Assembly: GCA_963792815.1 (NCBI GenBank)
Contig: CAWBXR010000011.1
Location: forward strand, 138,036-202,035
Direction of reading: 5' to 3'
Source of the DNA: an uncultured Gammaproteobacteria bacterium
GTDB lineage: Bacteria; Pseudomonadota; Gammaproteobacteria; Pseudomonadales; Halieaceae
Length of the DNA: 64,000 nt
Shown here in pieces: positions 1,009-60,903 of this stretch (position 1 is the stretch's first letter; the number at the start of each line of letters is the position of its first letter). The position numbers were made by a program, and so were the translations under genes. The notes under the pieces are model-generated. The model was given only the letters and a program-made list of their open reading frames with translations. It did no database searches and had not been told where the DNA came from.

Positions 1009-1018
1009 AAGGGACATC

Positions 1019-2866: not shown

Positions 2867-4117
<1,251 letters not shown>

Positions 4118-4118
<1 letters not shown>

Positions 4119-5320
4119 CAGGCGGCCCTGGCCGGCTCGAACAGGCCCGCCTCCTTGAGGCCTGCATAGGCGCTGATAATCCTGTCGATCTGCTCACTGC
4201 TGTGGGCCGCGCTGACACTGTTGCGCAGCAGGAAGTTGGTCGAGGGCGAGGCCGGCGGAATCACCAGGTTGACGTAGACCCCGGCCTCCATCAGCGCCTT
4301 CCAGCAGTCGATGGTGCGGGAGCGATCCACCATTTCCACTGCCACTACCGGGCTGGCGGTGGGGCCTACCGGCAGGTCCAGCGCTTTCAGCCCCTGGTAA
4401 AGCCGGTTGGCGTTATCCCAGACCCGCTGGCGACGCTCGGGCTCCGCGCGGATGATGCGCAGGGCCTCGCGGGTGGAGGCGATCACCGAGGGTGAAGATG
4501 ACGCGGTGAAAATATAGGCCTTGATGCAGAAGCGGATAGCTTCCAGTTCGCTGTGGGGGCTGACACAGAAGCCGCCGATGGAGCCAAGGCTCTTGCTGAA
4601 AGTGCCAACGGTGAAATCCACATCGGCCTCAACCCCAGCGGCCTGCGCGGCGCCGCGACCCGAGTCGCCCAGCACGCCCATGGAGTGAGCCTCGTCCACC
4701 AGCAGGTAGCCGCCGTATTCACGTTTGACCGCGGCGATTTCCTGCAGCGGAGCGACATCGCCCAGCATGGAGTAAATGCCTTCCGCGATGATCAGTGCCT
4801 GGCCCGCACGGTCCCCGAGGCGGCGCATCCGCTTGGCCAGGTCGTCCGGGTCGTTGTGCTTGTAGCGGATGATGTCGGCCTCGCTGAGCTTGACCCCGGA
4901 GTAGATGCTGGCGTGACTGTCCGCGTCCAGCAGTATGACGTCCCCCGGCCCCGCCAGGGTGGCGCACATTCCCATGGTCGCGGCGTAGCCGGTGGAGAAA
5001 ACGATGGCGTTGCTCACGCCGTAAAAGTCCGCTATTTCCCGCTCCAGTGCCTGGTGCTCCGCGAATGAGCCATTGGCCAGGCGCGAACCGGTAGTGCCGG
5101 TGCCCCATTTGGCTGCTGCCTGTTGGGAGGCGGCGATACAGCGCGGGTCGAATGACAGGCCCATGTAGTTGTTGGTACCGGCGAGGATGACCTTGTGGCC
5201 TTCTACCACCCCCTCGGTCGCGGACAGCAGTTGCTCGGTGACGGCACCGAAGGGGACCACTCCGCGTTCGGCGAGTTCGGCCTGAAAGTCGGCCATAGTC
5301 TGGAATTTGTCAAACAGCAT
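4118..5320 (-). CDS. PLP-dependent alpha-oxoamine synthase (Spt/BioF/Kbl family; serine-palmitoyltransferase-like)
   Basis: 400-aa ORF with GTNNYMGLS, LVDEAHSMGVLG and GTFSKSLGSIGGF (Schiff-base Lys context), all typical of the AOS family. Its stop overlaps the murA-like start (TGATG on the minus strand, 4116..4120). A small ACP gene lies directly upstream. Confidence 0.85.
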
Positions 5321-5459: not shown

Positions 5460-5702
5460 TCAGGGGTTGAGTTCCTGGACCTTTACCGCCAGTTCACCGA
5501 TGGTGTTTACGTCGGGCAGGATGTTGAGGGGAATCGAGATGTCGAAGTGATCCTCGATCTTCTCGATGAATTCCATGACCTCCAGGGAACTGAGACCGAT
5601 ATCGGCCACCAGGTGGGTTGATTCCGTCAGTTCAATATTCTTCTTATTTTGTGTTGCGAGAGCGCTGTACAGGAAACCCAGGTATTCTTGGTAATCGGTC
5701 AT
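5460..5702 (-). CDS. acyl carrier protein
   Basis: 80-aa acidic ORF with a DIGLSSLEVMEF phosphopantetheine-attachment Ser motif. It is the first gene of the minus-strand operon. Confidence 0.8.
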   Translation of the reverse strand: MTDYQEYLGFLYSALATQNKKNIELTESTHLVADIGLSSLEVMEFIEKIEDHFDISIPLNILPDVNTIGELAVKVQELNP

Positions 5703-5773: not shown

Positions 5774-6844
5774 ATGGTAATGCCAGTCATTTGGTTGATC
5801 GACGCCTACCGGGCAGGGGAGCAGGGCCAGGTTCGAGCCCTGGTTGATGCCCTCGGCTGGCCTTGCGAAACCAAGCGGCTGACTTACCGCAAACATGTGG
5901 TCCTGCCCCATGTGCTGGGGCTGACGAGCGTGCGTGGAATCAGCACCGAGTCGGTGGCCATGCTGGAGCCGCCCTGGCCGGACCTGGTCATCTCCAGCGG
6001 GGTTCGCAATGAGCCTGTGTGCCGCTGGATTCGCGCACAATCCGGCGGCCATACCCGCTATGTGCACGTTGGTCGACCCTGGGGCCCGCTGGCATCTTTC
6101 GACCTGGTCATCACCACACCCCAGTACAGGGTGCCCCGCCACCCCAACGTGCTGAACAATCTTTTGACCCTGCACAGCGCGACCCCGCAGCGCCTCGCCG
6201 CTGCCCGGGACCAGTGGAGCCCCGCCTTCGCGCATCTGCCGCGGCCCTATATCACCGTTGTCGCCGGTGGCGACAGCGGCCCGTTTACCCTGGGTCCGCT
6301 GGCCGCGAGCCGGCTCGCGCAGCAGGCCTCGGTGCTCGCTCGACAAAGTGGTGGTTCGCTGCTGGTCTCCACCAGTTCGCGCACCAGCGACGAGGCTATC
6401 GCCGCCCTGCAGGCCGGTATCGATGTGCCCAATTACTTTTATCGCTGGCAGCCCTCCGACCCGAAAAACCCCTATTTCGGCATGCTGGCCCTGGCGGACA
6501 GGCTGGTGGTCACCGGCGACAGTATCGCCATGTTGTCCGAAGCCTGCTCCACCGGTCGGCCGGTGCAGATCTTCGACCTGGGGGGAATGCGTGGCGAAAG
6601 CTCTGTTGCCGTTGATTTTCGCATGACTGCCACGCTGTACGCCGGCCTGATGCGCTGGTGCTGGCAGCGCCTGAGTCGCGACATCACCCTGGTACACCGG
6701 GAATTGCGCGCAACCGGCAGGGCATTCTGGATGGATGAGGAGTCAGGCGCCGCAGTGCTGCCGGGGGAGTCAGATATGGACCGGGCCGTGGCGGCGGTGC
6801 AGGGGCTGGTGCCAGCGGACCACCCGACCACGCAAGCTACTTAG
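5774..6844 (+). CDS. ELM1-like (PF06258/COG3660-type) putative GT-B-fold protein, paralog 1
   Basis: ATG at 5774 preceded by GGAAGA, chosen inside ORF 5618..6844. It shares PWPDLVISSG, QSGGHTR and VVTGDSIAML blocks with the ORFs at 11847 and 17141. Confidence 0.7.
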   Translation: MVMPVIWLIDAYRAGEQGQVRALVDALGWPCETKRLTYRKHVVLPHVLGLTSVRGISTESVAMLEPPWPDLVISSGVRNEPVCRWIRAQSGGHTRYVHVGRPWGPLASFDLVITTPQYRVPRHPNVLNNLLTLHSATPQRLAAARDQWSPAFAHLPRPYITVVAGGDSGPFTLGPLAASRLAQQASVLARQSGGSLLVSTSSRTSDEAIAALQAGIDVPNYFYRWQPSDPKNPYFGMLALADRLVVTGDSIAMLSEACSTGRPVQIFDLGGMRGESSVAVDFRMTATLYAGLMRWCWQRLSRDITLVHRELRATGRAFWMDEESGAAVLPGESDMDRAVAAVQGLVPADHPTTQAT

Positions 6845-8582
6845 CCAGCCCGGCCCTGGCAGTATCATCGAGCAGTTGGGCGGTCCCTGCCGACATCTGG
6901 TACACGTAATCCGCCGCCTGCACCAGCGCCCGGTTGTGGGAAATTGCCAGAATCGTCAGCCGTCCCTTGAGGTCTTCCATGGTCTGGCGCACCACCTCCT
7001 CGCTCTCCGGGTCGAGGGCGCTGGTGGCCTCGTCGAGGATCAGCAGTCGCGGCTTGTTGATGAGCGCCCGGGCGATCACGATGCGCTGGCGCTGGCCGCC
7101 GGACAGCTTGCCGCCGCGTTCGCCCACGATGGTGTCCAGCCCGGCGGGGAGGCGGTTGACGAAATCCCAGGCGCCGGCGGCGCGCAGGGCCTCCTCTGCG
7201 GCCGCCAGGTCCAGGTTCGGGTCTCCCAGGGTCACGTTGTGAAGAATGCTGTCGTGCAGCAGTAGCGTGTCCTGGGGTACATAGCCGATCATGCTGCGCC
7301 ACTGCTTGATATTGATCTCGCGCAGGGATACGCCATCGAGCAGCACAGTGCCCTCCTGGGGCTGCAGCAGCGCTATCGACAGGTCGATAATGGTGGTCTT
7401 GCCGGAGCCGGATGGCCCCACCAGCGTGGTCAGCGCCCCCGCCTTGATATCCAGGCACAGGCCGTTGAACACCGGGTGATGCTCATCATAGCCAAAGACT
7501 ACATCCCTGAATTGCAGGCCCTGCTCGAAGTGCGGCGCGATGCCGCCGTCGACGTGCTCCTCCGCCTGGGCGGCGGCATCGATGGAGGCCATCAGTGACC
7601 AGTAGGCGCTTTCGCCCTGGGCCAGCTTCTGGTGCTGTTTCTGGACTTTGCCGAAGAAGGAAAAGGCCCGTCCCAGGGCCACCACCAGGACCATCACCAT
7701 GGCCAGGTCGATGTCGAACTTCTCGATCGCCACCCAGACTCCCAGGCAGATAAAGCCGGTAAACATGAGCTCCTGGGCAGAATCCAGGACCGCGCCGTAC
7801 AGCACCTGGCGGCGCAACGCGCGGTTCAGCTGATTGGTGTCATGGGCCAGCACCTGGTCAGCCAGGTGTTCCCGCGACATGGCCTTGAGGGGCTTCACCG
7901 ATTGCAGGGTGTCCGTCAGGTTCGCCATCAACGAGGACATCAGTCGGGTCTGTCGTTTGCCGGCCTTGCGGGTAAGTCGCACCAGGAAGTGTGACAGCCC
8001 TATCACCACCACCCCTGCGACAATGGCGGCCAGTGAGGCGCGCCAGGAGATGGCGAAGGCCACTGCCCCGTAGACCAGTGCCTGGATCAGGAAGGTGATA
8101 GCGGTGGCGCCGTTGACGAAAGCGGCAGATGAGCGCTGTGCCTCGGTGGCCAGTGCGTTGGTGAGCTTGCCGACCGGCTGGTGCAGGAAGTACTCCCACT
8201 TGCTGCGCAGTACCGCCCGCAGCATCTGCAGGCGCAGGTCGGTGCCGACCTGCGCCGCGGTATACCCCACCTGGCGCTGGGCCAGCAGCAGGAAGGCGCT
8301 TTTCAGGGTCACGCCGAACAGCATGATGCCCAGCATATTGCCGAGTGTGGGCGCGATCCCCACGTAGGCCAGCGCATCGAGCACCGACTGCTCGAATGCG
8401 TTGTCGCTGGCGGGGACGGCGCCGGACAGCATCTCGGTGGCCTCGGAGCCCAGGGCGATATTGACCATGGGCAGCAGCGCCGACAGGCCGATGCCCTCGG
8501 CTACACCCGAAAGCAGCAGGGCCAGCAGCATCAACGTCGTCTGCGACGGGTATGCGCGAAAGAAATTGAGCATCAGGCCCAT
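6837..8582 (-). CDS. ABC exporter, fused permease/ATPase (MsbA-like)
   Basis: 581 aa. The N-terminal half is multi-TM. The C-terminal half has Walker A GPSGSGKTT, signature LSGGQRQR and Walker B LLILDEATSALD. Last gene of the lptF-lptG operon. Its 3' end overlaps the convergent ELM1-like gene by 8 nt. Confidence 0.85.
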   Translation of the reverse strand: MGLMLNFFRAYPSQTTLMLLALLLSGVAEGIGLSALLPMVNIALGSEATEMLSGAVPASDNAFEQSVLDALAYVGIAPTLGNMLGIMLFGVTLKSAFLLLAQRQVGYTAAQVGTDLRLQMLRAVLRSKWEYFLHQPVGKLTNALATEAQRSSAAFVNGATAITFLIQALVYGAVAFAISWRASLAAIVAGVVVIGLSHFLVRLTRKAGKRQTRLMSSLMANLTDTLQSVKPLKAMSREHLADQVLAHDTNQLNRALRRQVLYGAVLDSAQELMFTGFICLGVWVAIEKFDIDLAMVMVLVVALGRAFSFFGKVQKQHQKLAQGESAYWSLMASIDAAAQAEEHVDGGIAPHFEQGLQFRDVVFGYDEHHPVFNGLCLDIKAGALTTLVGPSGSGKTTIIDLSIALLQPQEGTVLLDGVSLREINIKQWRSMIGYVPQDTLLLHDSILHNVTLGDPNLDLAAAEEALRAAGAWDFVNRLPAGLDTIVGERGGKLSGGQRQRIVIARALINKPRLLILDEATSALDPESEEVVRQTMEDLKGRLTILAISHNRALVQAADYVYQMSAGTAQLLDDTARAGLAK

Positions 8583-8653
8583 GTCAGGAGGCTCCGTTCG
8601 TGGGCTGGAATGCCAGGCGGGTAGCGTTTGCGAGAGCGTGGTTCACCGGACAA

Positions 8654-9724
8654 TCACCAGTGCATTCGCCGCAACATGATCGCCGCAAAGATGATAATCA
8701 CCAGTGTGGGCGCCAGGGCGACCAGCGGTATGTTCAGGTTCATCAGTTGCCCGAGGGCAAATACGATCTGTGTCCCCAGGTAGAACAGGATGCCTACCAG
8801 TGCGCCCAGGGCGATGTCCAGGCCGAAGCTGCGATCACGCCGGGCGCCGAGGTTGGCGCTGATGGGGGTGGCCAGCAGAACCATAGCGCCGACGGTCAGT
8901 GGCATCAGCAGTTTCTGCCAGAACATACTGAGGTACTTTTCATTCGGCTGGCCGTTGTCGGCGCGGTACTGGCTGTAACGTCGCAGCACCGAGAGCCGCA
9001 TGCTGTCGCTGTCCAGCGTCAGCGTCGGCAGCTCGTCCGGGGACCACAGGTTGGTGATTTGCAGTTCCCGGTGGCGGCGGTTGACCAGGGTTCCATCCAC
9101 CAGCAGTTTCTCCCGCACCTTCTGGAACAACCAGGTGCGGTCCTTGCTGACCTTCGCGGTCTCCGCATGCAGGGCGCGCGTGAGTTGTCCGGAATCATCG
9201 AACTCGAACAGGTCGATATCCCCGGGTACGCCGTCCTTGTACATTTTTTCGAGGTGAATATAGCGGTTGCCATTTTTCGACCAGACGCCGCCATCGGGGA
9301 TCCTCACCTGGTTGCGGTAGCGCAGGGCGTGCCGCTCCGCCTCCGCGGACTGTTGCAGGGGGGGCGTGACATATTCCATGCACAGCCACAGCACTGCCAT
9401 CATCATGGCGGTGGGCAGGGCGATGGCCCGCATCAGGCGGGCCCGGGACATGCCACTGCAACTCATGATGGTGAGCTCGTTGGAGCGGTCGAGGCTGGCC
9501 AGCGCCACGATGCTGCCCAGCAGGGCGATGACCGGGGACAGGCTCACCAGCTGATGGGGCAGGACAAGCAGGGTGTAGCGCCCCACCGCCAGGGCGTTGT
9601 ATTCGAAGCGGGTATGGTCCAGTTCCTGGACAAAGCCAATCAGGCCGAACACCGCGCCCAGCACCATCAGCACCAGCAGCCACCCCTTGACCAGGTTCGT
9701 CGCAATATAACGCTCGAGTATCAT
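8654..9724 (-). CDS. lptG: LPS export permease LptG (YjgP/YjgQ family)
   Basis: Start taken at the internal ATG 9724 (MILERYIATNLVKGWLLVLMVLG...), which overlaps the lptF stop as ATGA. Membrane profile and N-terminus are typical of LptG. The upstream part of ORF 8654..9985 is antisense-like filler. Confidence 0.8.
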   Translation of the reverse strand: MILERYIATNLVKGWLLVLMVLGAVFGLIGFVQELDHTRFEYNALAVGRYTLLVLPHQLVSLSPVIALLGSIVALASLDRSNELTIMSCSGMSRARLMRAIALPTAMMMAVLWLCMEYVTPPLQQSAEAERHALRYRNQVRIPDGGVWSKNGNRYIHLEKMYKDGVPGDIDLFEFDDSGQLTRALHAETAKVSKDRTWLFQKVREKLLVDGTLVNRRHRELQITNLWSPDELPTLTLDSDSMRLSVLRRYSQYRADNGQPNEKYLSMFWQKLLMPLTVGAMVLLATPISANLGARRDRSFGLDIALGALVGILFYLGTQIVFALGQLMNLNIPLVALAPTLVIIIFAAIMLRRMHW

Positions 9725-10821
9725 CGCCTTCTCATCCACGGCTGCCTGACCAGCACCACCAGCAAAATCAACTGGAAGACATAGGCGCCCCACAGTCCGG
9801 GCAGCTCCCCTATCCGGCCCTGTTCGATACCCGTGCGTACCACGCTGGTCATGGTAAACAGGGCGATGTAAATGCCCACGGCTATCAACACGTTGCGCAT
9901 GCGGGATTCCCTTGGCGCGGACCGGGCCAGGGGCACCGCCATGAGCGCCAGCAGCACCGTGGCAATAGGGGTGGTGACCCGCCACTGGAACTCGGCTATA
10001 TCCTTGGGCTGGTCCGACTGGGACAGGTTGAGGGTGGTCTCCGCCTTGCGCCGGTACTGTTCCTGGGCTTCCTGGTTGTCCATCCGGACGATCAGGTTGT
10101 CGAATTTCAGGGTCAGGTCCTGGCGGTTTTCCAGGTCCAGGAGGTAGTTGTAGCCATTGAAAAACTCGGCCTGCATGGCGTGGCCGGGGTTGAGTACCGG
10201 CAACTCCGCCGCCTCCGCAATGATGATCTCCGAGCGCTTTTGCTCATCGTAATCCTTTTGCAGGAACACGCCCTCGTGGCGGCCCCGATCGAGGTCGAGG
10301 TCATTGGCGATAAATATGTAGTCGCTGCCGCTCATGTTGACGAATTCGCCGGTGGCCATTTTCTTGAGGTCGAACTTGGCTGCGGCCCTGGATTCCAGGT
10401 CATAGCTGGTGCGGAAGGCCCAGGGTCGCCCCAGGATCGATATGGCGCCGGTTACCAGCGCTACGACCAGGGCCAGCTTCAGCACTGCCTCGATAATCCG
10501 CGCCCGGCTGACGCCCGCTGCATACAGCGCGCTCATCTCCGAGTCGCGATACAGCCTGCCGATGGCCGCCAGCACTGAAAAGAAGAACGCCGATGGCATC
10601 AGGATCTCCAGCGTCACCAGTGTGTTCAGGCCAACCAGCTTGAATGCCGTGGTCATTTCGAGCTGGCCGGCCGCGGCTGCCGACAGCTGCTTTGCCGCGG
10701 AGAAACCGATGAATACGAGGATCAGCAGGCCGAGTCCCATCACGAAAGGGCGCAGGATTTCCAGGCTGATGTGGCGGTCGATGATCAAGCGGGTTGAGGT
10801 CCTTTGAGAGCTGCGGGGCAT
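9721..10821 (-). CDS. lptF: LPS export permease LptF (YjgP/YjgQ family)
   Basis: ORF 9721..11100 trimmed to ATG 10821. An alternative TTG at 10788 has an AAGGA Shine-Dalgarno 11 nt upstream. LIIDRHISLEILRPFVMGLGLLILVF is typical of an LptF N-terminus. Confidence 0.75.
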   Translation of the reverse strand: MPRSSQRTSTRLIIDRHISLEILRPFVMGLGLLILVFIGFSAAKQLSAAAAGQLEMTTAFKLVGLNTLVTLEILMPSAFFFSVLAAIGRLYRDSEMSALYAAGVSRARIIEAVLKLALVVALVTGAISILGRPWAFRTSYDLESRAAAKFDLKKMATGEFVNMSGSDYIFIANDLDLDRGRHEGVFLQKDYDEQKRSEIIIAEAAELPVLNPGHAMQAEFFNGYNYLLDLENRQDLTLKFDNLIVRMDNQEAQEQYRRKAETTLNLSQSDQPKDIAEFQWRVTTPIATVLLALMAVPLARSAPRESRMRNVLIAVGIYIALFTMTSVVRTGIEQGRIGELPGLWGAYVFQLILLVVLVRQPWMRRR

Positions 10822-10921
10822 TGTACCCCAAGCGGCGGCCGTCTGGTCATTTTGGCTGCCTTGCCCCATAATTGCACGCTTTGCGCAAGCCTCCCCACAT
10901 ACTGCCCGTGAGTACCCCCAC

Positions 10922-11863
10922 ATGTTCAAGCTGAGTGACGGAGTCAAGAAGGCGTTAATTTTGATTCCCACCGAGCCCCTGCCGGCCGGAACCCGGGTGT
11001 CCCTGCGACGCAAATATCTTGCCGAGCTGGAGCTGGCCAAGGCACATGCCGCCAGCTTCCTGATTATCGGCCACCCCAAAAGTGGCAATACCTGGCTCAA
11101 GGTGATGATTTCCAGGCTCTACCAGCTGCGCTATAACCTGCCGGAATCAAAGCTTATCAACACCGACGAATTCGCCCGCAAGATCCCTGAGATTCCGCGC
11201 CTGGCAGCCACCAACGGCTACTACAGTTACGAGGGCGAGGTGGGCAAACTGCTGGCGGTGGACGCCCCGGATAACCCCCTGCGGCACAAGCCGGTAATGT
11301 TCCTGGCCCGCAACCCCATAGATATTGCCGTGTCCTGGTATCACCAGTTTACCAAGCGCCAGTCCCGGGCCAAGCAGGAGCTGATCAACCATTTTATCGA
11401 CCACCCCATCGATCGGAACCAGATCGATATGTGGAATTTCGTGCGCCACTCGGATATCGGCCTGCCCTTTCTCATCGAGTACCAGAATACCTGGGCGCGC
11501 AACGTGGAGCAGCTCGAGAAGGGCCTGCTGGTCAAGTACGAGGAGCTGCGCGCTGAGCCCGTGCCTACCCTGCAGAAGATCATCCAGCTGATGGGTGAGA
11601 GTTTCAGCGAGGAGGAGATCCGGGCGGCGGTGGAGTGGGGCTCTTTTGACAACCTGCAGAAACTCGAGACCAGCGGCACCTTCAGCCAGGGCGGCATGAA
11701 ACTGGTCAACGCCGATGACCCCAGCACTTTCAAAGTGCGCCGGGGCAAGGTCGGCGGTTACCGCGAGGACTTTCCGCCCGAGCAGGTAGCCGAGCTGGAA
11801 GCCCTGGTGCGCGCCAATATCCTGCCGCAGCTGGGCTATTGCCAGGATGGCGCGGAGTCCTGA
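10922..11863 (+). CDS. PAPS-dependent sulfotransferase-domain protein, paralog 1 (most divergent)
   Basis: 5'-PSB loop GHPKSGNTWL, 3'-PB motif LARNPIDIAVSWY and C-terminal FKVRRGKVGGYREDF. It overlaps the next gene by 17 nt. Confidence 0.8.
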   Translation: MFKLSDGVKKALILIPTEPLPAGTRVSLRRKYLAELELAKAHAASFLIIGHPKSGNTWLKVMISRLYQLRYNLPESKLINTDEFARKIPEIPRLAATNGYYSYEGEVGKLLAVDAPDNPLRHKPVMFLARNPIDIAVSWYHQFTKRQSRAKQELINHFIDHPIDRNQIDMWNFVRHSDIGLPFLIEYQNTWARNVEQLEKGLLVKYEELRAEPVPTLQKIIQLMGESFSEEEIRAAVEWGSFDNLQKLETSGTFSQGGMKLVNADDPSTFKVRRGKVGGYREDFPPEQVAELEALVRANILPQLGYCQDGAES

Positions 11864-12968
11864 CTTGGCCGCCCCCCGGACCTGGGTCATCCTCAGTGAC
11901 AAGCAGGGCGACAACGGACAGGTAGAAACCATTGTCGACGCCCTGCCCTGGCCGGTGGAGCACAAGTATGTCCACATGTTGCCCCAGTGGGTGCTGGGCA
12001 AGCCGCGCTACCGCCCCTCGCTGGATCACATCGATCCGGAGCAGTCCGACCCCATTGAGGCGCCCTGGCCCGACCTGATTCTCACGGTTGGCCGGCGCCC
12101 GTCAATGGTGGCCCTGTGGATCCGCCAGCAATCCGGCGGCAGGACCAGGATCGTGCTGGTGGGCAAGCCCTCTGGCCATATGCTGGATTTCTCCCTGGTG
12201 GTCGCCAGCGCCGAGAACCAGATGCCGCCGATGGATAACTTCCTGCCCACCACGCTGCCCCTGATGCGGATCAGTGAGGCCGATGTGGCCGCCGAGGCCG
12301 AGGCCTGGCGGGAGCGCTTTGCGCCGCTCGACAAGCCGCTGATTGCCATGCTGATCGGTGGCGAAACCAATCCCTTCATCATGAATCGCAAGGTGGCCCA
12401 GGACCTCGTGGCAACTGCCCACTGGGTGGTGGACGAGCTCGGGGGGACCCCTTACGTTACAACCAGCCGGCGCACCACGCCGGAGGTGGTCGAGGTATTG
12501 CGGCGGGACCTGCCGCCCCAGGCCCAGTTTTTCGAGTGGGCGGCAGGCTCACCGGACAACCCCTACCGCGCCCTGCTGGGCAGCGCCGACGGCTTTATCG
12601 TCACCGGCGACAGCGTGTCGATGATGGTGGAGGTTATTTACCTGCATAAGCCCCTGGCCATATTCCCACTGCCCGGAGGCGCCCTGGGCAGTATCGACCA
12701 GCTGCGCCGCTCCCTGGCCCACTGGCTGTTCAACCCGAAGCTGGAGTCACTCGGCGACCGCCTGCGCCGTCGCCTGGCCCGGGGTGTCTACTACATCGAT
12801 GTGTTCAAGATTCTGTGCGCCACCCGGGACTTCCGGGCCTTTCACCGGATGCTGGTGGCACAGGGGCTGGCGGTCTGGGCGGGACAGCCCTTTCGCCGCA
12901 CGGCCGCCGAACTGCCGGACGATGTCGGCACGGTTGTCAGGCGGATAGAGGCGTTGTTCCCGGGCTGA
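11847..12968 (+). CDS. ELM1-like putative GT-B-fold protein, paralog 2
   Basis: Shares the PWPDLILTVG, QSGGRTR and IVTGDSVSMM blocks with the paralogs at 5774 and 17141. Confidence 0.7.
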   Translation: MARSPDLAAPRTWVILSDKQGDNGQVETIVDALPWPVEHKYVHMLPQWVLGKPRYRPSLDHIDPEQSDPIEAPWPDLILTVGRRPSMVALWIRQQSGGRTRIVLVGKPSGHMLDFSLVVASAENQMPPMDNFLPTTLPLMRISEADVAAEAEAWRERFAPLDKPLIAMLIGGETNPFIMNRKVAQDLVATAHWVVDELGGTPYVTTSRRTTPEVVEVLRRDLPPQAQFFEWAAGSPDNPYRALLGSADGFIVTGDSVSMMVEVIYLHKPLAIFPLPGGALGSIDQLRRSLAHWLFNPKLESLGDRLRRRLARGVYYIDVFKILCATRDFRAFHRMLVAQGLAVWAGQPFRRTAAELPDDVGTVVRRIEALFPG

Positions 12969-13012
12969 TGCCCGCGAGAGTCGGCGTGCGCAAACGCACT
13001 CCGGGGTCGCTG

Positions 13013-13639
13013 TCAGCGCAGCCGCAGAACGTTTTTCATAAAGTGGGTGCCGAAGCGGCTCAGGCGTTGGGCGGCCACCGCCAGCGGGCTCTCGTCCAGG
13101 TAGTTGAGCTGGACCATGCGCCGCTCCCCGACATAGCGGGTGTGGCCGTGCCAGGAGTGGTCGGTGCGGCGAAAAGCCAGCAAGGTGCCCCCCAGCGGCG
13201 GCACCTGGGCGACATAATTCTCTATATCATCCTTTGAGCGCAGCATGCGCAGCTGCCCGTCCTCGTGGTCCCACTGCTCGTTGAAGTACACCAGCACGGT
13301 GATGACCTTGCTTTTGTGGTCGGTGTGAATGTTGCCGTCGGTCCGCTCGCAGAATTTGCGCACGGTGACCGTGGTGGGCAGGGAAGCCAGTTCCATGTCG
13401 AAGCGCTCACCCAGGGCCGTGGCGAAGTCCGGGGCGCGCAGTTCTTCCATCAGGTCTGCAAAGGCCGGGCCGTACTGCAGGTTATCGAGTGCGTGGTTGG
13501 CCGCGGTTTCAATCGCCGGGTAGTCGGCGTTGACGCGGGCCAGTACCTCGGGGCTGAGAAAGCCCGGCACCACCATATAATCGAAGGGGTCGGTGTGCAG
13601 TTCGGCGTTCTGCAGGGCCTGTATGTTGAGCAGTGACAT
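13013..13639 (-). CDS. 2OG-Fe(II) oxygenase-like protein, paralog 1
   Basis: 208 aa. Contains an HxD triad element (NIHTDHK), a distal His (HSWHGH) and a following Arg (ERRMV), consistent with a prolyl-4-hydroxylase-like double-stranded beta-helix fold. Confidence 0.55.
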   Translation of the reverse strand: MSLLNIQALQNAELHTDPFDYMVVPGFLSPEVLARVNADYPAIETAANHALDNLQYGPAFADLMEELRAPDFATALGERFDMELASLPTTVTVRKFCERTDGNIHTDHKSKVITVLVYFNEQWDHEDGQLRMLRSKDDIENYVAQVPPLGGTLLAFRRTDHSWHGHTRYVGERRMVQLNYLDESPLAVAAQRLSRFGTHFMKNVLRLR

Positions 13640-13695
13640 CGGCGCATTCTAGTTGTCGCCCGGGTCGCGGGCAAGGCGGATCGGGGCTTGTATCC

Positions 13696-13729
13696 TGTTA
13701 ATAGTGCCTCTATTGGATGTTAATAGTGC
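13696..13729. promoter_or_regulatory. 12-nt direct repeat TGTTAATAGTGC x2 in a divergent promoter region
   Basis: Exact copies at 13696..13707 and 13718..13729 (22-nt period). They lie in the AT-richer 195-nt gap between the divergent oxygenase-like gene and sulfotransferase 2. Confidence 0.3.
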
Positions 13730-13834
13730 GGTAAATCCCCGATTGCCCCGTGGTGCGGGAGCAGGCGTTTTCCTGTAATATTCGCGGCCTTTGCAGTTTC
13801 CAAATCATGTCATGCCAGCGAGGACCTCCCGCAT

Positions 13835-14746
13835 ATGGCCGATACCGCACGGGCCGTCGTTCGCCACCTCATAATGCTTCTTTGCTTCTGGCTGCCCTCG
13901 TCGCGGCGCAAGAAGATCGAGCGCTGGTTGCGCGGTCGCGAGGAGTTCAAGAAACTCGAACAAAGTGACTGGGTGCTGATGAGCTGGGGCAAGTCCGGTC
14001 GCACCTGGTTGCGGGTGATGCTGTCGCGCGCCTACCAGCTCAAGGGTGGCCTGGACGCCCGCGAGCTGCTCGATTTCGACAATCTCAAAAAGCTCGACCC
14101 GCGGCTGCCCGCGGTGTTCTTCACCCACAACAACTACCTGCGGGACTACACCGGCAACCAGGAGTCCAAGGCTCACTTCCTGGGCAAGCGCATTGTGCTG
14201 CTGGTGCGCGACCCCCGGGACGTTGCTGTGTCCCAGTTTTTCCAGTGGCAGTTCCGCATGCGCCCCAACAAGAAGTTCATCAATGACTATCCCCCCCACG
14301 GCGCCGACATCGGGGTATGGGAGTTCGTGCTGGACGAGGACGCCGGCGTGCCGCGCATCGTCGACTACTTCAACGGCTGGGCCCGCGCGATTCCCCAGTT
14401 GAAGGACGTGCTGATCGTGCGCTACGAGGACATGCGCGCAGACCCCACAGCGGTGCTGGCCAGTATCCTCGAATTTACCGGCACCGAGGTGACCCCTCAG
14501 CAGGTGCAGGAAGCGGTGGATTTCGCGGCCTATGACAACATGAAGAAAATGGAGCAGGAAAAGTTCTTCAAGGGCAGCGGCGCCAGGGTCAAGCCCGGCG
14601 ACAAGGACAACCCCCAGTCCTTCAAGGTGCGCAAGGCCAAGGTTGGCGGCTACCGCGACTATTTCACCGACGAACAGTGTGAGCAGCTCGACCGCATGGT
14701 TGAGCAGCTGGACCCGGTGTTCGGTTACGGGGTTGAACAGGTATGA
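13835..14746 (+). CDS. PAPS-dependent sulfotransferase-domain protein, paralog 2
   Basis: WGKSGRTWL (5'-PSB), LVRDPRDVAVSQF (3'-PB) and FKVRKAKVGGYRDYF. ATGA overlap with the next sulfotransferase. Confidence 0.85.
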   Translation: MADTARAVVRHLIMLLCFWLPSSRRKKIERWLRGREEFKKLEQSDWVLMSWGKSGRTWLRVMLSRAYQLKGGLDARELLDFDNLKKLDPRLPAVFFTHNNYLRDYTGNQESKAHFLGKRIVLLVRDPRDVAVSQFFQWQFRMRPNKKFINDYPPHGADIGVWEFVLDEDAGVPRIVDYFNGWARAIPQLKDVLIVRYEDMRADPTAVLASILEFTGTEVTPQQVQEAVDFAAYDNMKKMEQEKFFKGSGARVKPGDKDNPQSFKVRKAKVGGYRDYFTDEQCEQLDRMVEQLDPVFGYGVEQV

Positions 14747-15681
14747 ATCTCGCTTTCCAGAACCTGCGCCAGGGGCTGCAGACCGCCCGCAAGAAACTCT
14801 CGCGCAAGTGGTTGCACTGGCGCATGCGCGCCCAGCCTGAGGCGGAAATACTCACGGCCGAGCGCAAGCTGCGCGGCGTCGAGCAGTTCGACAAGCTGCA
14901 GAAAGCCGACATCGTGGTGGTATCCTTCGGCAAGAGCGGCCGCACCTGGCTGCGGGTGATGATCTCCCACCTGTTCCGGGTGATGTACAAACTGCCGGAA
15001 AATGCCATCCTGGGCTTCGATAATTTCCACAACCTGAACAAGTCGGTACCGAAGGTATTCTTTACCCACGACAACTACATCAAGGACTTCACCGGCGACT
15101 TCACCAGCAAGCAGCCGTTCTACGGCAAGCGCGTGATACTCCTCGCCCGGGATCCCCGGGATGTGGCGGTGTCCCAGTTTTTCCAGTGGAAATTCCGGAT
15201 CAAGCCCTCCAAGGTCACCATCAATAACTACCCGCCCCAGGGCAGCGATATCAGCCTCTTCGATTTCGTTATGGGTGATAACGGCGGCGGTATGCGAGCG
15301 GTCACCGATTACCTGAACCTGTGGGCGGCCGAGGCCGACAAGGTCACCGCCTTCCACCTGCTGCGCTACGAGGACCTGCGCAGCGATACCGCGGTTGAGT
15401 TGCGCAAACTTCTGAACTTCATGCAGGTCGATGCCACCAACGCCGAGGTTGATGCGGCGGTGGAATACTCTTCCTACGAGAACATGAAGAAGATGGAAAG
15501 CAAGGAGCAGTTCCGCTTCGCCGGTGGCCGCATGATGCCCCGGGACAAGGACAATCCCGACAGCTACAAGGTGCGCCGCGCCAAGGTCGGCGGTTACCGC
15601 GATTACTTCACCGACGAGGAAGTCGCGGCCATCGATGCCCGTTTGGCTGTCGAGCTGGATCCGCTGTTTCGTTATAGCTGA
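14743..15681 (+). CDS. PAPS-dependent sulfotransferase-domain protein, paralog 3
   Basis: FGKSGRTWL, LARDPRDVAVSQF and YKVRRAKVGGYRDYF. Start overlaps the upstream stop (ATGA at 14743..14746). Confidence 0.85.
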   Translation: MNLAFQNLRQGLQTARKKLSRKWLHWRMRAQPEAEILTAERKLRGVEQFDKLQKADIVVVSFGKSGRTWLRVMISHLFRVMYKLPENAILGFDNFHNLNKSVPKVFFTHDNYIKDFTGDFTSKQPFYGKRVILLARDPRDVAVSQFFQWKFRIKPSKVTINNYPPQGSDISLFDFVMGDNGGGMRAVTDYLNLWAAEADKVTAFHLLRYEDLRSDTAVELRKLLNFMQVDATNAEVDAAVEYSSYENMKKMESKEQFRFAGGRMMPRDKDNPDSYKVRRAKVGGYRDYFTDEEVAAIDARLAVELDPLFRYS

Positions 15682-15728
15682 TTGCGGAGTTCCCTGGTTG
15701 TGGCTCGGCTGAATTTCCCTGCCTAACG

Positions 15729-16165
15729 TTTAGTTCTGGTCTGGCAAGCCGGGCGCGACCGGGGAGAGCCCCCTCGAAAAGGCCGCAGCTCCGCAAACAA
15801 AAGGAAATTGGGGACAGACCACCATTAATTATTCGTTACAGAACGCATCGGGCTAGCGCAGGGTTGGATCTTTTTAGATCCGCGCACCACTTGATGTCAC
15901 CAAACTGTGGTCCGTCCCCCATTCTCGCCCAGTTCTGCAGAACGCTCGATTGAGGGCGCAATCGGGGAGCAGCCCCTCGAAAAAGTCAGGTCGCGTTTAG
16001 CGTAGTCAACAAACTCGGGGCTTTCTGCGAGCACTGTTCGAGTCCCAATTTTTTGCGTAGCAAAAAATGGTCGAGTTGCGCAGCAGCCGAGTTTGTTGAC
16101 GAGCTGCGGCCTTTTCGAGGGGCTGCTCCCCGGTTGTGCCCGTCTTGACACGCCTGAACCAGAAA
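15729..16165. repeat. nested inverted-repeat (REP/BIME- or MITE-like) element filling a convergent intergenic gap
   Basis: A 31-nt unit GGGGAG(A/C)(G/A)(C/G)CCCCTCGAAAAGGCCGCAGCTC occurs at 15761..15791 (+), a diverged copy at 15964..15994 (+), and an inverted copy at 16101..16131. Flanking similarity extends the outer inverted pair to about 50 nt (15740..15791 vs 16101..16153). Inner inverted pairs are GGGGACAGACCAC 15810..15822 / GTGGTCCGTCCCC 15908..15920 and GTCAACAAACTCGG 16005..16018 / CCGAGTTTGTTGAC 16087..16100. Hairpins are GGATCTTTTTAGATCC at 15866..15881 and CCAATTTTTTGC-GTA-GCAAAAAATGG at about 16045..16070. Confidence 0.7.
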
Positions 16166-16169
16166 CATA

Positions 16170-17060
16170 TCAAGCGGCCCGAACCAACTCCAGCGCGTCA
16201 GCCCGCAAATGCCCCTGCTCCATTTCTTCTTGCAGCTGGGCTTCAGTGATCACGCCGTCGTCCAGGCAGCCCTTTACCAGGCCGAAGAAGAACTTTTCCT
16301 GGTTGGGGTCCGGGTGGGCGTCGTAGGTGCCGGCGAACTTGTACTCGCCGAACAGGGCGCGACGCGCGCGGCGCAGCCAGTGACGGGGTGGGAACAGCTG
16401 GAAGGTGTCGGCGGGGCGGTAGTCCACCTTGAGGCCGGTCTTCCAGGGTTGGGTCTTGCGCTTGGTGTTGTGCAGCAGCTTGGTCTGCTCGGTGAGATTG
16501 TCGAAGTCGTTCCACTGGCTCTCCAGCCGGCCGATAGTGGCAGGGTCTTCCAGCTTTAGGGAGACCCAGTCCATGTAGTCCCGCTTCGAGGGCTTGAACA
16601 TCTCGGCGAAATTCTCCTCGAAGCGCCAGTGGCGGAGCTTCGCGCAATCCAGCAGCATCACGCTGCTGGCGAAAGCGCCCTTGCGGCCTTTGCGGCCCGA
16701 TTTGGGGCGACACATGATGGCCTTGCCTTCCATGTCCCTGTTGAGCAGTTCCCAGACATCGCCCAGGGCAAACACGTCCGGGTCGATAATCACCGCGCGG
16801 CCCTCGTAGTTCATCAGTTGCGGCGGCGCGAAGCGCAGGGGAGTGAAGGACTGCAGGTCGTTGTTGAGCCATGGGCGCATTTCGCCGTCGCGCAGGTACT
16901 GTTGTCCCTCCCGCTCGGCCATGCAGGGGAAGTCCTTCACCTCGATGAATTTGACATCGAACTGCTCGGCATGGGCAGAATTTTTCTGCAGGGAGTAGCG
17001 ACTGACCACCGCACCCAGCTTCTGCTTGTGGTTGGTGTGAATGAAAACAGTAGGTTTCAA
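16170..17060 (-). CDS. GT8-like (GT-A fold, DxD) glycosyltransferase, paralog 1
   Basis: TTG start at 17060 ((M)KPTVFIHTNHKQ). Contains DLQSFTPLRF, GRAVIIDPDVF (DxD), SSVMLLDCAKLRHW and LHNTKRKTQPWKTGL (GT8-type H..(K/Q)PW motif). Two clear paralogs lie at 18219 and 25197. Confidence 0.65.
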   Translation of the reverse strand: MKPTVFIHTNHKQKLGAVVSRYSLQKNSAHAEQFDVKFIEVKDFPCMAEREGQQYLRDGEMRPWLNNDLQSFTPLRFAPPQLMNYEGRAVIIDPDVFALGDVWELLNRDMEGKAIMCRPKSGRKGRKGAFASSVMLLDCAKLRHWRFEENFAEMFKPSKRDYMDWVSLKLEDPATIGRLESQWNDFDNLTEQTKLLHNTKRKTQPWKTGLKVDYRPADTFQLFPPRHWLRRARRALFGEYKFAGTYDAHPDPNQEKFFFGLVKGCLDDGVITEAQLQEEMEQGHLRADALELVRAA

Positions 17061-17140
17061 ACTCTGGCTTCCCTTGGCGGATTAGTGTGGTAGTTTACCG
17101 CTGGCGCAGTACCAGATAAACGGCAGGGTTTGGCAATATT

Positions 17141-18244
17141 TTGGAGAGAAATCAAGAGGTCGCAGTCTGGTGCCTGCTGGGCGCGAAGGCCGGGGATAAT
17201 ACCCAGGTGCTCGCCCTGGCGGAGGAGCTGGGCTGCGGCTACGAGGAAAAACATATACGGGCCCGCCCCTGGGAGTTACTCGTTCACCTGGGGGTCGGCC
17301 CGACCCTGGCGGGTATCGACAGGGACGCGTCCAGTGAGCTGCTGCCACCCTGGCCCGACCTGGTCATCAGTGCCGGTCGACGCAACGAGGCAGTGGCCCT
17401 CTGGATAAAGCAACAATCCGGGGGCAGGACCGCACTCGTCCACATGGGACGCCCCTGGGCCGGCCTCGACAAGTGGGACCTGCTGGTAACTACCCCTCAG
17501 TATTTCCTGCCCCGACAGGACAATATCCTGCACAACAGCCTGCCCCTGCACCGGCTTTCCCGGGCAGAACTGCAGGCCGATGGTGAGCGCTTGCGACCGC
17601 GGCTGGAAGGGCTGCCACGGCCCTGGATAGCGTTGCTGGTGGGGGGTGACAGTGGGCGTTTTGTGCTTACCCCCGCCAAGGGTGAGCGCCTGGGAAGCCT
17701 GGCGAACCAGCTGGCCGCGGCCAGTGGCGGCTCTCTGCTGGTGACGGATAGCGCGCGGACGCCGGTGGCGGCGGCAGATGCCCTGCAGGCCCAACTCACC
17801 GCGCCCAACTTCTGCTATCGCTGGGGCGGTGGCGGCGACAACCCCTATCGCAGCCTGCTGGCCCTTGCCGATGCCTTCGTGGTTACCGGCGAATCCATGT
17901 CCATGCTGGGGGAGGCGGTGGCCATGGGGCGTCCGCTGTATATCTTTGATGTCGGTGACGGCTCACTGCCCTGGTGGCGGCTGGCCCACAGTTATCGTTA
18001 CAAGCCTCTGAGCCACCGCCTGGCGATGCGCCTGGGCCCGCTGCGGATGCGGCGGGAAATCGGCAACATCCAGTCCGCGCTGGTCGACAGCGGCCGGGCC
18101 AGTTGGCTGGAGCAGGGGACTATAGCGACAGCTGCCGCGGAACTGGGCGAAACGGCAGCCGGCAGCAGTGCCGTCGGGTCCCTGGCAGCGCAGGAGCTGG
18201 AGCGGACTGCGGCCGCCGTCAGGCGGCTTTTGACAGCGCGCTGA
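17141..18244 (+). CDS. ELM1-like putative GT-B-fold protein, paralog 3
   Basis: TTG start as given by the ORF track; no in-frame ATG lies near the N-terminus. Contains PWPDLVISAG, QSGGRTA and VVTGESMSML blocks. Its 3' end overlaps the convergent GT8-like gene by 26 nt. Confidence 0.65.
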   Translation: MERNQEVAVWCLLGAKAGDNTQVLALAEELGCGYEEKHIRARPWELLVHLGVGPTLAGIDRDASSELLPPWPDLVISAGRRNEAVALWIKQQSGGRTALVHMGRPWAGLDKWDLLVTTPQYFLPRQDNILHNSLPLHRLSRAELQADGERLRPRLEGLPRPWIALLVGGDSGRFVLTPAKGERLGSLANQLAAASGGSLLVTDSARTPVAAADALQAQLTAPNFCYRWGGGGDNPYRSLLALADAFVVTGESMSMLGEAVAMGRPLYIFDVGDGSLPWWRLAHSYRYKPLSHRLAMRLGPLRMRREIGNIQSALVDSGRASWLEQGTIATAAAELGETAAGSSAVGSLAAQELERTAAAVRRLLTAR

Positions 18245-19163
18245 GCGGGTGTGCGGGGGCCGGCGGCAGGTCCGGGGTCCTTGCCAGCACTTCCAGGGCG
18301 TCGTGGCGCACGTGGTTCAGCGCCATCTCGTTGCGCAGGAACTCCTCGGTGATCTTGCCGCTGGCGAGGCACTCCTTGAGCAGGCCGAAAAAGAAGTCTT
18401 CCTGGTTCTGGTCGGGGTGCTGCTTGTAGTTGCCCAGGAAGGCGTACTCGCCGAACAGTTTGCGGCGCGCGCGCATCACCCAGGCCACCGGTGGGAACAG
18501 GCGGAAACGCTCCGCGGGGCGCCAGTCGGTGGGCAGGCCGGTCTTCCAGGGCTGGGTCTTGCGCCGGGTGGTGTGCAGCATTTTGGTGGCAGGGGTGAAT
18601 TTGTCGAAGTCGTTCCACTCGGATTCGAAGAAGTCGATGGTGCTGCGGTCTTCCTCGCGCAGGCAGATCCAGGGCTGGTAGTCCTGGGTGAAATCAAACA
18701 TCGCCTCGAAGCTGCGCTCGGCGTCCCAGTGTTGCAGCCTGGCGCAGTCCAGCAACATCACGCTGCTGGCCATGCAGCGGTCCACCAGGCCCTTGGGGCC
18801 GGAGCGCATGCGACACATGATGGCCTTGCCGTGCATATCGCGGCTGAGCAGTTCCCAGATGTCGGCGGCGGCGAAAATATCAGGGTCGATGACCACGGCC
18901 CGGCCCTCGTAGCCCATCAGTTTGGGGGGCATGAAGCGGGTGGGGGTGAAGGATTGCAGGTCGTCGTTCAGCCAGGTGCGCTTGACGCCGTCGCGCAGGT
19001 ATTCCTGCCCCTCGTGGGCGGCGAACATCGGGTAATCCCGGCTGTCCATGATCTGCACGTCGAACTTGTCGTTGTTGGCGGAATAGCGGCGCAGGGCGTG
19101 CTCGGCCACGATGGCGCCGGTGATCTGCTTCTGGTTGGTCTGGATAAATACGCAGGCTTTCAT
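18219..19163 (-). CDS. GT8-like glycosyltransferase, paralog 2
   Basis: MKACVFIQTNQKQ..., DLQSFTPTRF, GRAVVIDPDIF, SSVMLLDCARLQHW and LHTTRRKTQPWKTGL. Last gene of a six-gene minus-strand operon. Confidence 0.65.
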   Translation of the reverse strand: MKACVFIQTNQKQITGAIVAEHALRRYSANNDKFDVQIMDSRDYPMFAAHEGQEYLRDGVKRTWLNDDLQSFTPTRFMPPKLMGYEGRAVVIDPDIFAAADIWELLSRDMHGKAIMCRMRSGPKGLVDRCMASSVMLLDCARLQHWDAERSFEAMFDFTQDYQPWICLREEDRSTIDFFESEWNDFDKFTPATKMLHTTRRKTQPWKTGLPTDWRPAERFRLFPPVAWVMRARRKLFGEYAFLGNYKQHPDQNQEDFFFGLLKECLASGKITEEFLRNEMALNHVRHDALEVLARTPDLPPAPAHPLSALSKAA

Positions 19164-54595: not shown

Positions 54596-54672
<77 letters not shown>

Positions 54673-60890: not shown

Positions 60891-60903
60891 GAGGTTACTT
60901 TTA

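Follow-up and report, generated by a model that had tools for sequence, protein, structure and literature searches.

Three genes of a protein family named after a plant mitochondrial-fission factor lie within 13 kb of a bacterial genome: what do they do there, and on which lipid? We addressed this question in a stretch of 64,000 nucleotides, the window of this study, from an uncultured gammaproteobacterium of the Halieaceae (GenBank assembly GCA_963792815.1, contig CAWBXR010000011.1, positions 138,036 to 202,035). The genes, here called ELM1 paralogs A, B and C, occupy positions 5774–6844, 11847–12968 and 17141–18244 of the window, all on the plus strand. A first-pass annotation of this DNA had seen in them GT-B-type transferases acting on the lipid anchor of a glycolipid locus. 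We lean, with moderate confidence, towards a more specific reading, in which ELM1 enzymes in the cytoplasm would extend a ceramide-phosphate anchor, step by step, with a glycosyl head group that is both anionic and sulfated.

The three open reading frames (ORFs) translated cleanly and matched PF06258 (Mito_fiss_Elm1; gathering score 27 bits) with 203.9 bits for A (E = 4e-60), 171.1 bits for B (E = 4e-50) and 191.9 bits for C (E = 1.9e-56), covering the profile at near full length (positions 1 to 257/269 of 304). No other Pfam family matched them at E ≤ 0.01, an NCBIfam scan of the three returned zero model matches, and relatives carry the NCBI product name 'ELM1/GtrOC1 family putative glycosyltransferase'. 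The proteins align collinearly with a mutual identity of 31–43% (34–43% when measured over this alignment; pairwise tblastn E-values of 4e-44 to 7e-70), and tblastn detected no fourth copy within the window. All three proteins contain two of the motif blocks first noticed, PWPDL(V/I)(I/L)(S/T)xG and QSGG(H/R)T; the third block needs amending for copy A, which has ML-ALAD in place of LL. The start of copy A lies at 5774 or 5780, the N-terminus of its orthologs being MPVIW.

An AlphaFold2 model of copy A, built from 25 sequences, displayed two Rossmann-like beta-alpha-beta halves with a mean predicted local distance difference test score (pLDDT) of 88.2 and a predicted template modelling score (pTM) of 0.85. 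When this model was compared with the PDB by Foldseek, as the first-pass annotation had proposed, 145 matches were obtained at E ≤ 1e-3 (best 9e-7). GT-B-fold enzymes accounted for 50/50 among the matches listed, which included TreT, MurG, UrdGT2, CalG1, MGD1, a polysialyltransferase and UDP-GlcNAc 2-epimerases. Template modelling (TM) scores were modest, at only 0.4–0.5, indicating that there is no close relative among solved structures, and a PDB sequence search with copy A returned noise only. Of the suggested comparison set of GT9 heptosyltransferases, LpxB and MurG, only MurG appeared, as a generic match at fold level among many GT-B structures (7d1i, E = 1e-6, TM-score 0.44); by sequence, none of the three families was matched, either in Pfam (A, B and C) or in the PDB (copy A).

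Searching 1.84 billion representative sequences yielded 5803 clusters at E ≤ 1e-3, from which we drew relatives for a motif alignment of 137 sequences, A, B and C included. The second Arg of an S-x-R-T motif was invariant (137/137), and conservation extended to the GG loop, NPY, T-x-(D/E)-S and a Glu in the helix that follows. The first variable position of S-x-R-T was free (R in 44, A in 34 and P in 34 of the 137).

These motifs gain meaning from Acinetobacter baumannii A1S_2903, an ELM1-like protein named GtrOC1 in PMC4172580 and now called KdoT. It adds a third 3-deoxy-D-manno-octulosonic acid (Kdo) residue from cytidine monophosphate (CMP)-Kdo to Kdo2-lipid IVA, as established by genetics in 2024 and in vitro in 2025 (PMC10936431, PMC12856342), which makes the earlier description of the family as essentially uncharacterised outdated. 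Within the SRRT motif of KdoT, R180 is required (R180K is active, R180A and R180Q are inactive) and R179 is dispensable, and the invariant Arg has been proposed to bind the donor carboxylate (PMC12856342, PMC10936431). The variable first position among the 137 relatives agrees with the dispensable R179. Further PF06258 proteins of Acinetobacter outer-core loci (GtrOC1, 14, 19 and 22) have long been listed as predicted glycosyltransferases of clan GT-B.

The window proteins share with KdoT the family, the GT-B fold, the lack of a transmembrane helix, an expected lipid-linked acceptor, the S-x-R-T of the C-terminal domain with the second Arg that is essential in KdoT, and a place in a locus for an outer-membrane glycolipid. 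They differ in number, with three diverged copies against one, and in setting, which is a sphingolipid (spt/cpg-type) rather than a lipopolysaccharide (LPS) outer-core locus. Compared by published motif, the full SRRT occurs in copy B only; A has SSRT (residues 201–204) and C has SART. No transmembrane or hydrophobic segment was detected in A, B or C. A, B and C belong to the inverting GT-B family ELM1/GtrOC1/KdoT and are ancient, non-redundant paralogs. Because of the GT-B fold, the retained Arg and motifs and the lack of a hydrophobic segment, we regard A, B and C as KdoT-family transferases that are active and peripheral and work in the cytoplasm, a reading drawn from sequence and model. 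Kdo or a similar CMP-activated acidic sugar is the leading candidate for the donor of at least one paralog, an assignment by analogy that we rate as tentative and somewhat below even; it is our best guess in view of what KdoT does and of the invariant Arg, with its proposed binding of a carboxylate.

Which lipid would these enzymes act on? Copy A shares a divergent intergenic region of 72 bp with an acpR-spt operon and has an ABC exporter on its other side. The first gene of this operon, a small and easily overlooked ORF between spt and copy A that narrows the gap to this distance, encodes an AcpR-like acyl carrier protein of 80 amino acids (5460–5702, minus strand). It is followed by a serine palmitoyltransferase gene, spt (4118–5320, minus strand; NCBIfam equivalog NF047599, 591.8 against 500 bits). 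The window begins with a GNAT-like gene cut by the window start, a probable bacterial ceramide synthase (1–1008, plus strand; weak PF00583 match). Next come a MobA-like nucleotidyltransferase gene (899–1837, plus strand; PF12804, E = 2.6e-13), by domain type like CpgD/CC_1152 or CC_1153, and a calcineurin-like phosphoesterase gene (1917–2846, minus strand; PF00149, E = 5.6e-11) of the domain type of Caulobacter CC_1158. CpgD is a CTP:phosphoglycerate cytidylyltransferase (PMC12275187), and CC_1158 (phosphoesterase type) and CC_1161 (Tam41-like) are described in the supplement of PMC11324152. On the far side of the ELM1 genes lie a DAGK_cat lipid kinase gene resembling that of the ceramide kinase CpgB (21141–22106, minus strand; PF00781, E = 3e-12, above cut-off) and a Tam41/Mmp37-like gene of the domain type of Caulobacter CpgC/CC_1161 (20206–21108, minus strand; PF09139, E = 4.4e-4, below the gathering score). 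CpgB has been identified as the ceramide kinase (PMC12275187, PMC10331486).

A, B and C are therefore positioned between spt and the cpgB/cpgC-like genes. The neighbourhood of acpR-spt, cpgB/cpgC-like, sulfotransferase and LptFG genes is not an LPS core-oligosaccharide locus, and the initial label of a glycolipid locus can be sharpened from lipid locus to Caulobacter-type sphingolipid locus (acpR, spt, CpgB-like, Tam41-like, LptF/LptG and ABC exporter). With the Caulobacter crescentus cluster CC_1152–CC_1168 (PMC9393093, PMC11324152, PMC12275187) the window shares, matched by domain type, spt, acpR, the ceramide-synthase-like gene, the putative ceramide kinase of DAGK type, the Tam41-like gene, the calcineurin-type phosphoesterase, the nucleotidyltransferase and the LptF/LptG pair. 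Contiguous versions of this cluster have been described in gammaproteobacteria, and a gammaproteobacterial version is on record for Azotobacter and Pseudomonas luteola. The Caulobacter cluster differs in several respects: none of its 17 genes, each of which has an assigned function or domain in these papers, is described there as ELM1-family, sulfotransferase or the family of about 300 amino acids introduced below; its flippase candidate is Wzx-like, in contrast to the ABC exporter of the window; it contains CpgA (PF01066), which was not found in the window; and its product bears a bare phosphoglycerate head group, whereas that predicted here is glycosylated and sulfated. The family, fold and donor-side motifs uphold in outline the earlier proposal of GT-B transferases, and from the gene content the lipid anchor is most likely a sphingolipid of the ceramide phosphate type rather than a generic glycolipid.

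Six minus-strand genes that overlap or lie at most 76 bp apart form the operon containing the cpg-like genes. In order, they encode a Wzy_C/O-antigen-ligase-family membrane protein (22966–24141; PF04932, E = 1.1e-9), which source records name O-antigen ligase, a 288-amino-acid protein with an N-terminal signal or anchor sequence and no family match (22103–22969), the CpgB-like and CpgC-like proteins, a GT2 glycosyltransferase (19240–20202; PF00535, E = 1.3e-23) and, last, copy 2 of a family of about 300 amino acids (18219–19163). Because these genes overlap or nearly touch, the decorating and ceramide-phosphate enzymes are probably co-transcribed.

Transport genes fill the space between A and B on the minus strand: the ABC exporter (6837–8582; ABC_membrane and ABC_tran domains), a candidate flippase, and LptG-type (8654–9985; TIGR04408, 268 against 240 bits) and LptF-type (9721–11100; TIGR04407, 265 against 230 bits) permeases, which are probable LptG2 and LptF2. 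LptF2/G2 pairs have been reported in many alpha- and gammaproteobacterial sphingolipid loci (PMC11324152, bioRxiv 10.64898/2026.04.12.717747), and were recently shown to be necessary for sphingolipid transport (bioRxiv 10.64898/2026.04.12.717747). The same permeases bring in a competing explanation, that A, B and C are LPS inner-core transferases for Kdo or a similar sugar and that an LPS core and export region, made up of the sulfotransferase, GT8-like, WaaL-like, ABC exporter and LptFG genes, is merely interleaved with sphingolipid genes. LptF and LptG both exceed the cut-offs of the NCBI LPS-transporter equivalogs, KdoT itself uses Kdo2-lipid IVA, ELM1-family genes are regular members of Acinetobacter outer-core loci, and the Wzy_C ligase-family gene and a GT8-like hint add genes of a kind also typical of LPS core loci. 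Against it stand the 72-bp region that copy A shares with acpR-spt, the operon that joins Wzy_C, GT2 and a gene of the 300-amino-acid family to the cpgB- and cpgC-like genes, the reported occurrence of LptF2/G2 pairs in sphingolipid loci, and the exporter, which falls far below the level of MsbA (TIGR02203, 242 bits against a cut-off of 602). Neither waaA nor any lpx or heptosyltransferase gene was found in the 64-kb window.

The arrangement is not peculiar to one assembled genome. Scanning one genome per species gave a set of 80 loci, whose titles read Halieaceae, Haliea, Halioglobus, Mangrovimicrobium, or unclassified gammaproteobacterial or Pseudomonadota metagenome-assembled genomes (MAGs). 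By position-aware tblastn, gene order was kept in essentially all of the loci long enough to show it, as phosphoesterase, (murA-like), spt, ELM1 paralog A, ABC exporter, LptG, LptF, sulfotransferase, paralog B, 2-oxoglutarate (2OG) oxygenase, two sulfotransferases, a gene of the 300-amino-acid family, paralog C, another gene of that family, (GT2), Tam41-like, DAGK and signal-peptide protein; the GT2 gene was present in 25 of the loci only. The closest homologs came from Halioglobus and Haliea MAGs, and the nearest representatives of copy C, such as that of Haliea sp. E17, were 56–63% identical. Each paralog has its own orthologs across the Halieaceae (59–95% identity), and each has relatives (49–63%) closer than its in-genome paralogs (31–43%).

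This conservation also bears on the idea that at least one paralog is a catalytically dead scaffold or regulator. Plant ELM1, the mitochondrial fission factor after which PF06258 is named, is of the same Pfam family and acts as a recruitment factor, presumably as an adaptor for a dynamin-related protein, and KdoT depends in vivo, for unexplained reasons, on its partner GnaT. Plant ELM1 is, in contrast, a eukaryotic adaptor of the outer mitochondrial membrane without known enzymatic role and is unrelated to this locus. All three window proteins keep the family-wide donor-side motifs, including the functionally tested Arg, and each is conserved across the Halieaceae at the level given above. We consider a scaffold role very improbable.

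Does the same module recur beyond the Halieaceae? The nine outside contexts considered here, identified by L numbers, were all reached from one query in which ELM1 is fused to a PAP2_3 domain, a domain of the Aur1/Ipt1-type phosphotransferase family. Among the relatives from the representative search were ELM1–ELM1 tandems (P0121–P0123, P0286, P0290) and PAP2_3–ELM1 fusions (P0132, P0142, P0282–P0314); ELM1 fusions occur in Myxococcota, Dongiaceae and other MAGs. One further relative, P0371, also bears methyltransferase domains. In L083 and in the Dongiaceae locus L088 we found an ABC exporter, PAP2_3–ELM1, ELM1, a methyltransferase, a sulfotransferase, the 300-amino-acid family and ELM1. L084 (Myxococcota) and L086 contain an ABC exporter, two genes of the 300-amino-acid family, ELM1, one or more sulfotransferases, a fused LptFG, PAP2_3 and then an ELM1–ELM1 tandem, and the L084 module additionally has a 2OG oxygenase. 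L089 combines two sulfotransferases, ELM1, 2OG oxygenase, the 300-amino-acid family, ELM1 and PAP2_3, and in L081 a gene of the 300-amino-acid family lies directly upstream of PAP2_3–ELM1. As a complete module, three ELM1 domains, a sulfotransferase, the 300-amino-acid family and an ABC exporter are found together in L083, L084, L086, L088 and L089, variably accompanied by a 2OG oxygenase and a fused LptFG. At the edge of the L086 module, an Inositol_P-family gene (209–1045, plus strand) could encode a CysQ-type 3'-phosphoadenosine 5'-phosphate phosphatase serving the sulfotransferases.

Three of these loci tie ELM1 directly to ceramide synthesis. L085 and L087, which may be close relatives of each other, carry on one strand the 300-amino-acid family, PAP2_3–ELM1 (A-type), a fatty-acid hydroxylase, an AMP-binding protein, an epimerase, a PP-binding acyl carrier protein and Spt (Aminotran_1_2), a co-directional string that is a ceramide operon; genes flanking these operons are 41–43% identical to the first gene of the window. 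In L090, acpR-spt-murA-like and an ELM1 gene are transcribed divergently, just as in the window, and the PF00550 protein encoded upstream of spt is 51% identical to the window AcpR. That the pairing of copy A with acpR-spt, or an Aur1-like PAP2_3 fusion beside a ceramide operon, recurs in this way speaks further against the LPS inner-core explanation, whereas Lip_A_acyltrans and Arn-like genes adjoining the L086 module and PagL near that of L089 speak for it. Weighing both sides, we regard that explanation as unlikely, at about one chance in five's worth of belief.

Parts of the module have been conserved to different degrees. Between the window and L081 and L083–L089 the 300-amino-acid family is 54–62% identical, above the 31–53% of window ELM1 proteins and their counterparts on the same outside contigs; the window ABC exporter is 39–50% identical to the ELM1-adjacent exporters of L083 and L086, and the window 2OG oxygenase 42–46% identical to homologs in the L084 and L089 modules. 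A neighbour-joining tree of ELM1 domains, calculated without bootstrap or other support values, contained a clean B-type clade of window B with the stand-alone ELM1 proteins of L083, L084 and L086 (49–52% identity). Window A grouped, in an A-type clade, with the ELM1 domains that are fused to PAP2_3 in L081, L083 and L085 and with the C-terminal halves of the two tandems (L084 and L086). The N-terminal halves of the tandems fell, together with window C and L083_e3, into a third, paraphyletic set. The A-type is, judged by these gene neighbourhoods, the ELM1 type tied to the putative anchor-forming genes. The three ELM1 types appear to be old and to have been retained together, since orthologs exist for every paralog and three ELM1 domains, one of them clearly B-type, are also found in distant lineages; this speaks for three separate steps. 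Stepwise chain building, proposed at first from the number of copies, thereby gains comparative support.

The outside modules also help to judge whether A, B and C could instead be TagF-like phosphotransferases that use cytidine diphosphate (CDP)-glycerate, supplied by the CpgD-like nucleotidyltransferase, to add phosphoglycerate to ceramide phosphoglycerate. They would then replace CpgA, the CDP-alcohol phosphatidyltransferase that serves for the second phosphoglycerate in Caulobacter, and its absence here would be accounted for. TagF enzymes, whose donor is CDP-glycerol, have a GT-B-type fold. The window has a CpgD-like nucleotidyltransferase and no PF01066 CpgA homolog was found in it; moreover, CMP-Kdo and CDP-glycerate are both cytidine-linked, carboxylated donors that release CMP, and the invariant Arg is proposed to bind a donor carboxylate. 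Yet no such nucleotidyltransferase lies beside the ELM1 modules of L083, L084, L086, L088 and L089, the sulfotransferases that accompany ELM1 in these same five loci fit hydroxyl-rich sugar acceptors better, and the one assayed family member is a true glycosyltransferase. A phosphotransferase function is consequently improbable in our estimation.

The genes around B and C are candidates for decorating the chain. The first-pass annotation had placed each paralog beside either a sulfotransferase gene or a GT8-like one, which applies to B and C; A adjoins acpR-spt and the exporter. Copy B overlaps by 17 nt the upstream sulfotransferase gene 1, to which it is translationally coupled (10922–11863; PF00685, E = 2.4e-23). 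Sulfotransferase genes 2 (13835–14746; E = 1.3e-25), 3 (14743–15681; E = 7.3e-24) and 4 (24270–25193; E = 5.4e-23) match the same Pfam family and, like gene 1, lie on the plus strand. Motifs for binding 3'-phosphoadenosine 5'-phosphosulfate (PAPS) are intact in the sulfotransferases; in sulfotransferase 1 the 5'-phosphosulfate-binding motif (5'-PSB) reads KSGNTW and the 3'-phosphate-binding motif (3'-PB) RNPIDIAVS. A 2OG-Fe(II) oxygenase gene follows copy B (13013–13639, minus strand; PF13640, E = 8e-9). We considered it as a KdoO, but its match is PF13640 and the Pfam scans gave no Kdo-hydroxylase family. A second, weak 2OG-oxygenase-like gene lies just past the locus (26105–26821, plus strand).

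Copy C is flanked by two genes of the 300-amino-acid family, copy 1 (16170–17060, minus strand), a candidate GT-A enzyme with an IDPD motif, and copy 2, which ends the minus-strand operon; copy 3 follows sulfotransferase gene 4 (25197–26108, plus strand). The three window copies are 56–59% identical to one another (copy 1 57–59% to copies 2 and 3, copy 3 56–57% to copies 1 and 2). For the GT8-like label, the one match in Pfam is that of copy 1, which is sub-threshold (E = 0.015, 15.3 against 24.3 bits); Pfam returned nothing else for the family, a 10-sequence profile gave zero matches among PDB sequences, and an AlphaFold2 model from the three window paralogs reached a pLDDT of only 53.9. Copy 2 is the most conserved gene of the locus (81–99% across the Halieaceae), and its 90% cluster has 991 members, of which the named ones (9 of 40 read) are all 'hypothetical'. 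D-P-D is invariant in the family, and no transmembrane segment was found. This is probably an unrecognised enzyme family and possibly one of GT-A transferases.

From these elements we infer the acceptor, donor, order of action and product of a pathway. AcpR, Spt and the ceramide-synthase-like protein would make ceramide, which the CpgB-like kinase and CpgC-like protein would phosphorylate or activate at the cytoplasmic face. A, B and C would then extend the ceramide-phosphate head group in turn, at the inner face of the inner membrane, from nucleotide-activated donors. Further residues may be added by the 300-amino-acid proteins, possibly as GT-A enzymes, and by GT2; with PAPS as donor, the four sulfotransferases would place sulfate on the chain, and hydroxylation of part of the product would fall to the 2OG oxygenase. 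Cytoplasmic assembly is suggested because ELM1 and the 300-amino-acid family lack a transmembrane segment and the sulfotransferases keep their PAPS motifs. The ABC exporter would flip the completed anionic lipid, which the LptF2/LptG2-type pair, probably acting together with LptB as it does in Caulobacter, would then extract in the direction of the outer membrane. In the periplasm, the WaaL-like protein may ligate a further unit. The position of the Wzy_C gene at the head of the ceramide-kinase-like operon raises the possibility of a polymer ligated onto the sphingolipid.

Several considerations weigh against this sphingolipid pathway, beginning with those already credited to LPS: the permease scores (265 against 230 and 268 against 240 bits), the WaaL-like and GT8-like genes, and the lipid A-related neighbours in L086. 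The sole characterised family member acts on LPS (Kdo2-lipid A) and not on a sphingolipid (PMC12856342), and there is no experiment or lipid structure for any Halieaceae. The cpgC-like label comes from a sub-threshold Pfam match, no CpgA-type PF01066 gene (the type of CC_1159) was found among the window ORFs scanned, and the window has no PAP2_3 gene. The locus contains no sugar-nucleotide synthesis gene that would hint at the donor, an absence that fits a housekeeping donor such as CMP-Kdo. Finally, the single fusion query makes the outside contexts a biased sample, and the A/C split of the tree is weakly resolved.

The logic of the pathway has a parallel in group 2 capsules. There, the beta-Kdo transferases KpsS and KpsC build a poly-Kdo linker on (lyso)phosphatidylglycerol. 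As proposed for A, B and C, several Kdo-transferase modules work in turn on a phospholipid head group, and the tandem of two transferase domains in KpsC resembles the ELM1–ELM1 fusions. The analogy is one of logic only: KpsS and KpsC are of the Capsule_synth/GT107 family, with retaining chemistry and a glycerolipid anchor.

Downstream of spt, the minus strand contains a murA-like enolpyruvyl transferase gene (2867–4118; TIGR01072, 426.6 against 392.7 bits for 2867–3865). It is split by a 1-nt indel near 3773–3778, with the N-terminal part (3744–4118) in another frame. The frame is broken by an additional G in a run of G that falls within the conserved active-site loop LPGGCAIG, and the ORF is unbroken (416 amino acids) in the 95%-identical locus L078, so that either an assembly error or a pseudogene accounts for it. 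Since the order spt then murA-like is found again in L090, and the gene is missing from this position in several Halieaceae loci, it may represent a second, dedicated copy and not the housekeeping murA. We had also considered this EPSP (5-enolpyruvylshikimate-3-phosphate)-synthase-like gene as a CpgA-like head-group enzyme and dropped it, since NCBIfam identifies it as murA-type and CpgA is PF01066.

Other features lie beyond the locus. Just past it, a NodU/CmcH-type carbamoyltransferase gene (29614–31344, minus strand) has a counterpart of 34% identity near the L090 ELM1 gene. Further along are a WS/DGAT wax-ester synthase gene (33270–34937, minus strand), TamB/TamA (45492–51279, plus strand) with a very GC-rich (0.73) stretch at 46–48 kb, one tRNA gene (54599–54672, minus strand), which is the only Rfam match in the window, and a LolA-like gene followed by two MacB-type permeases and an ATPase (57623–61608, plus strand).

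What is already known here is the protein family, recently characterised, and the sphingolipid backbone of the locus. The conserved module of three ELM1 genes with sulfotransferases, the 300-amino-acid family and an exporter, and its repeated tie to ceramide synthesis, appear to be new in the searchable literature: among the papers listed for Halieaceae none mentioned sphingolipids or Spt, and we found no papers on ELM1 and ceramide together. If A, B and C were LPS inner-core enzymes after all, the finding would be an ordinary extension of the KdoT story.

A bolder extension of the sphingolipid reading, which we think doubtful, is that an LPS-like 'sphingo-lipopolysaccharide' is produced by Halieaceae and, independently of them, by some Myxococcota and Dongiaceae. 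On its ceramide-phosphate anchor would sit a short oligosaccharide with a high content of Kdo or a different acidic sugar, made by three KdoT-family enzymes in fixed order, with the A-type first, beside the anchor-forming step. Heavy sulfation, an ABC exporter of its own, hand-over to LptB-F2G2 and possible WaaL-like capping would complete it. Such a molecule would represent a second, convergent solution for an anionic outer-leaflet glycolipid, and the 300-amino-acid proteins would constitute a new family of glycosyltransferases linked with it.

Research on bacterial sphingolipids and on their Lpt-like export is active, and the head groups known so far in proteobacteria are simple: phosphoglycerate, or one or two sugars. 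The locus predicts a far more elaborate, sulfated glycosphingolipid in the Halieaceae (OM60/NOR5 clade), an abundant coastal marine group, and since cultured carriers exist, among them Halioglobus japonicus, Mangrovimicrobium sediminis SAOS 164 and Halioglobus sp. Uisw_031, the prediction is directly testable. The conservation of three ELM1 types hints at an order in which they act, and their highly conserved partner of about 300 amino acids looks like an unrecognised enzyme family. If the prediction is true, the reach of the KdoT family would extend from LPS to sphingolipids.

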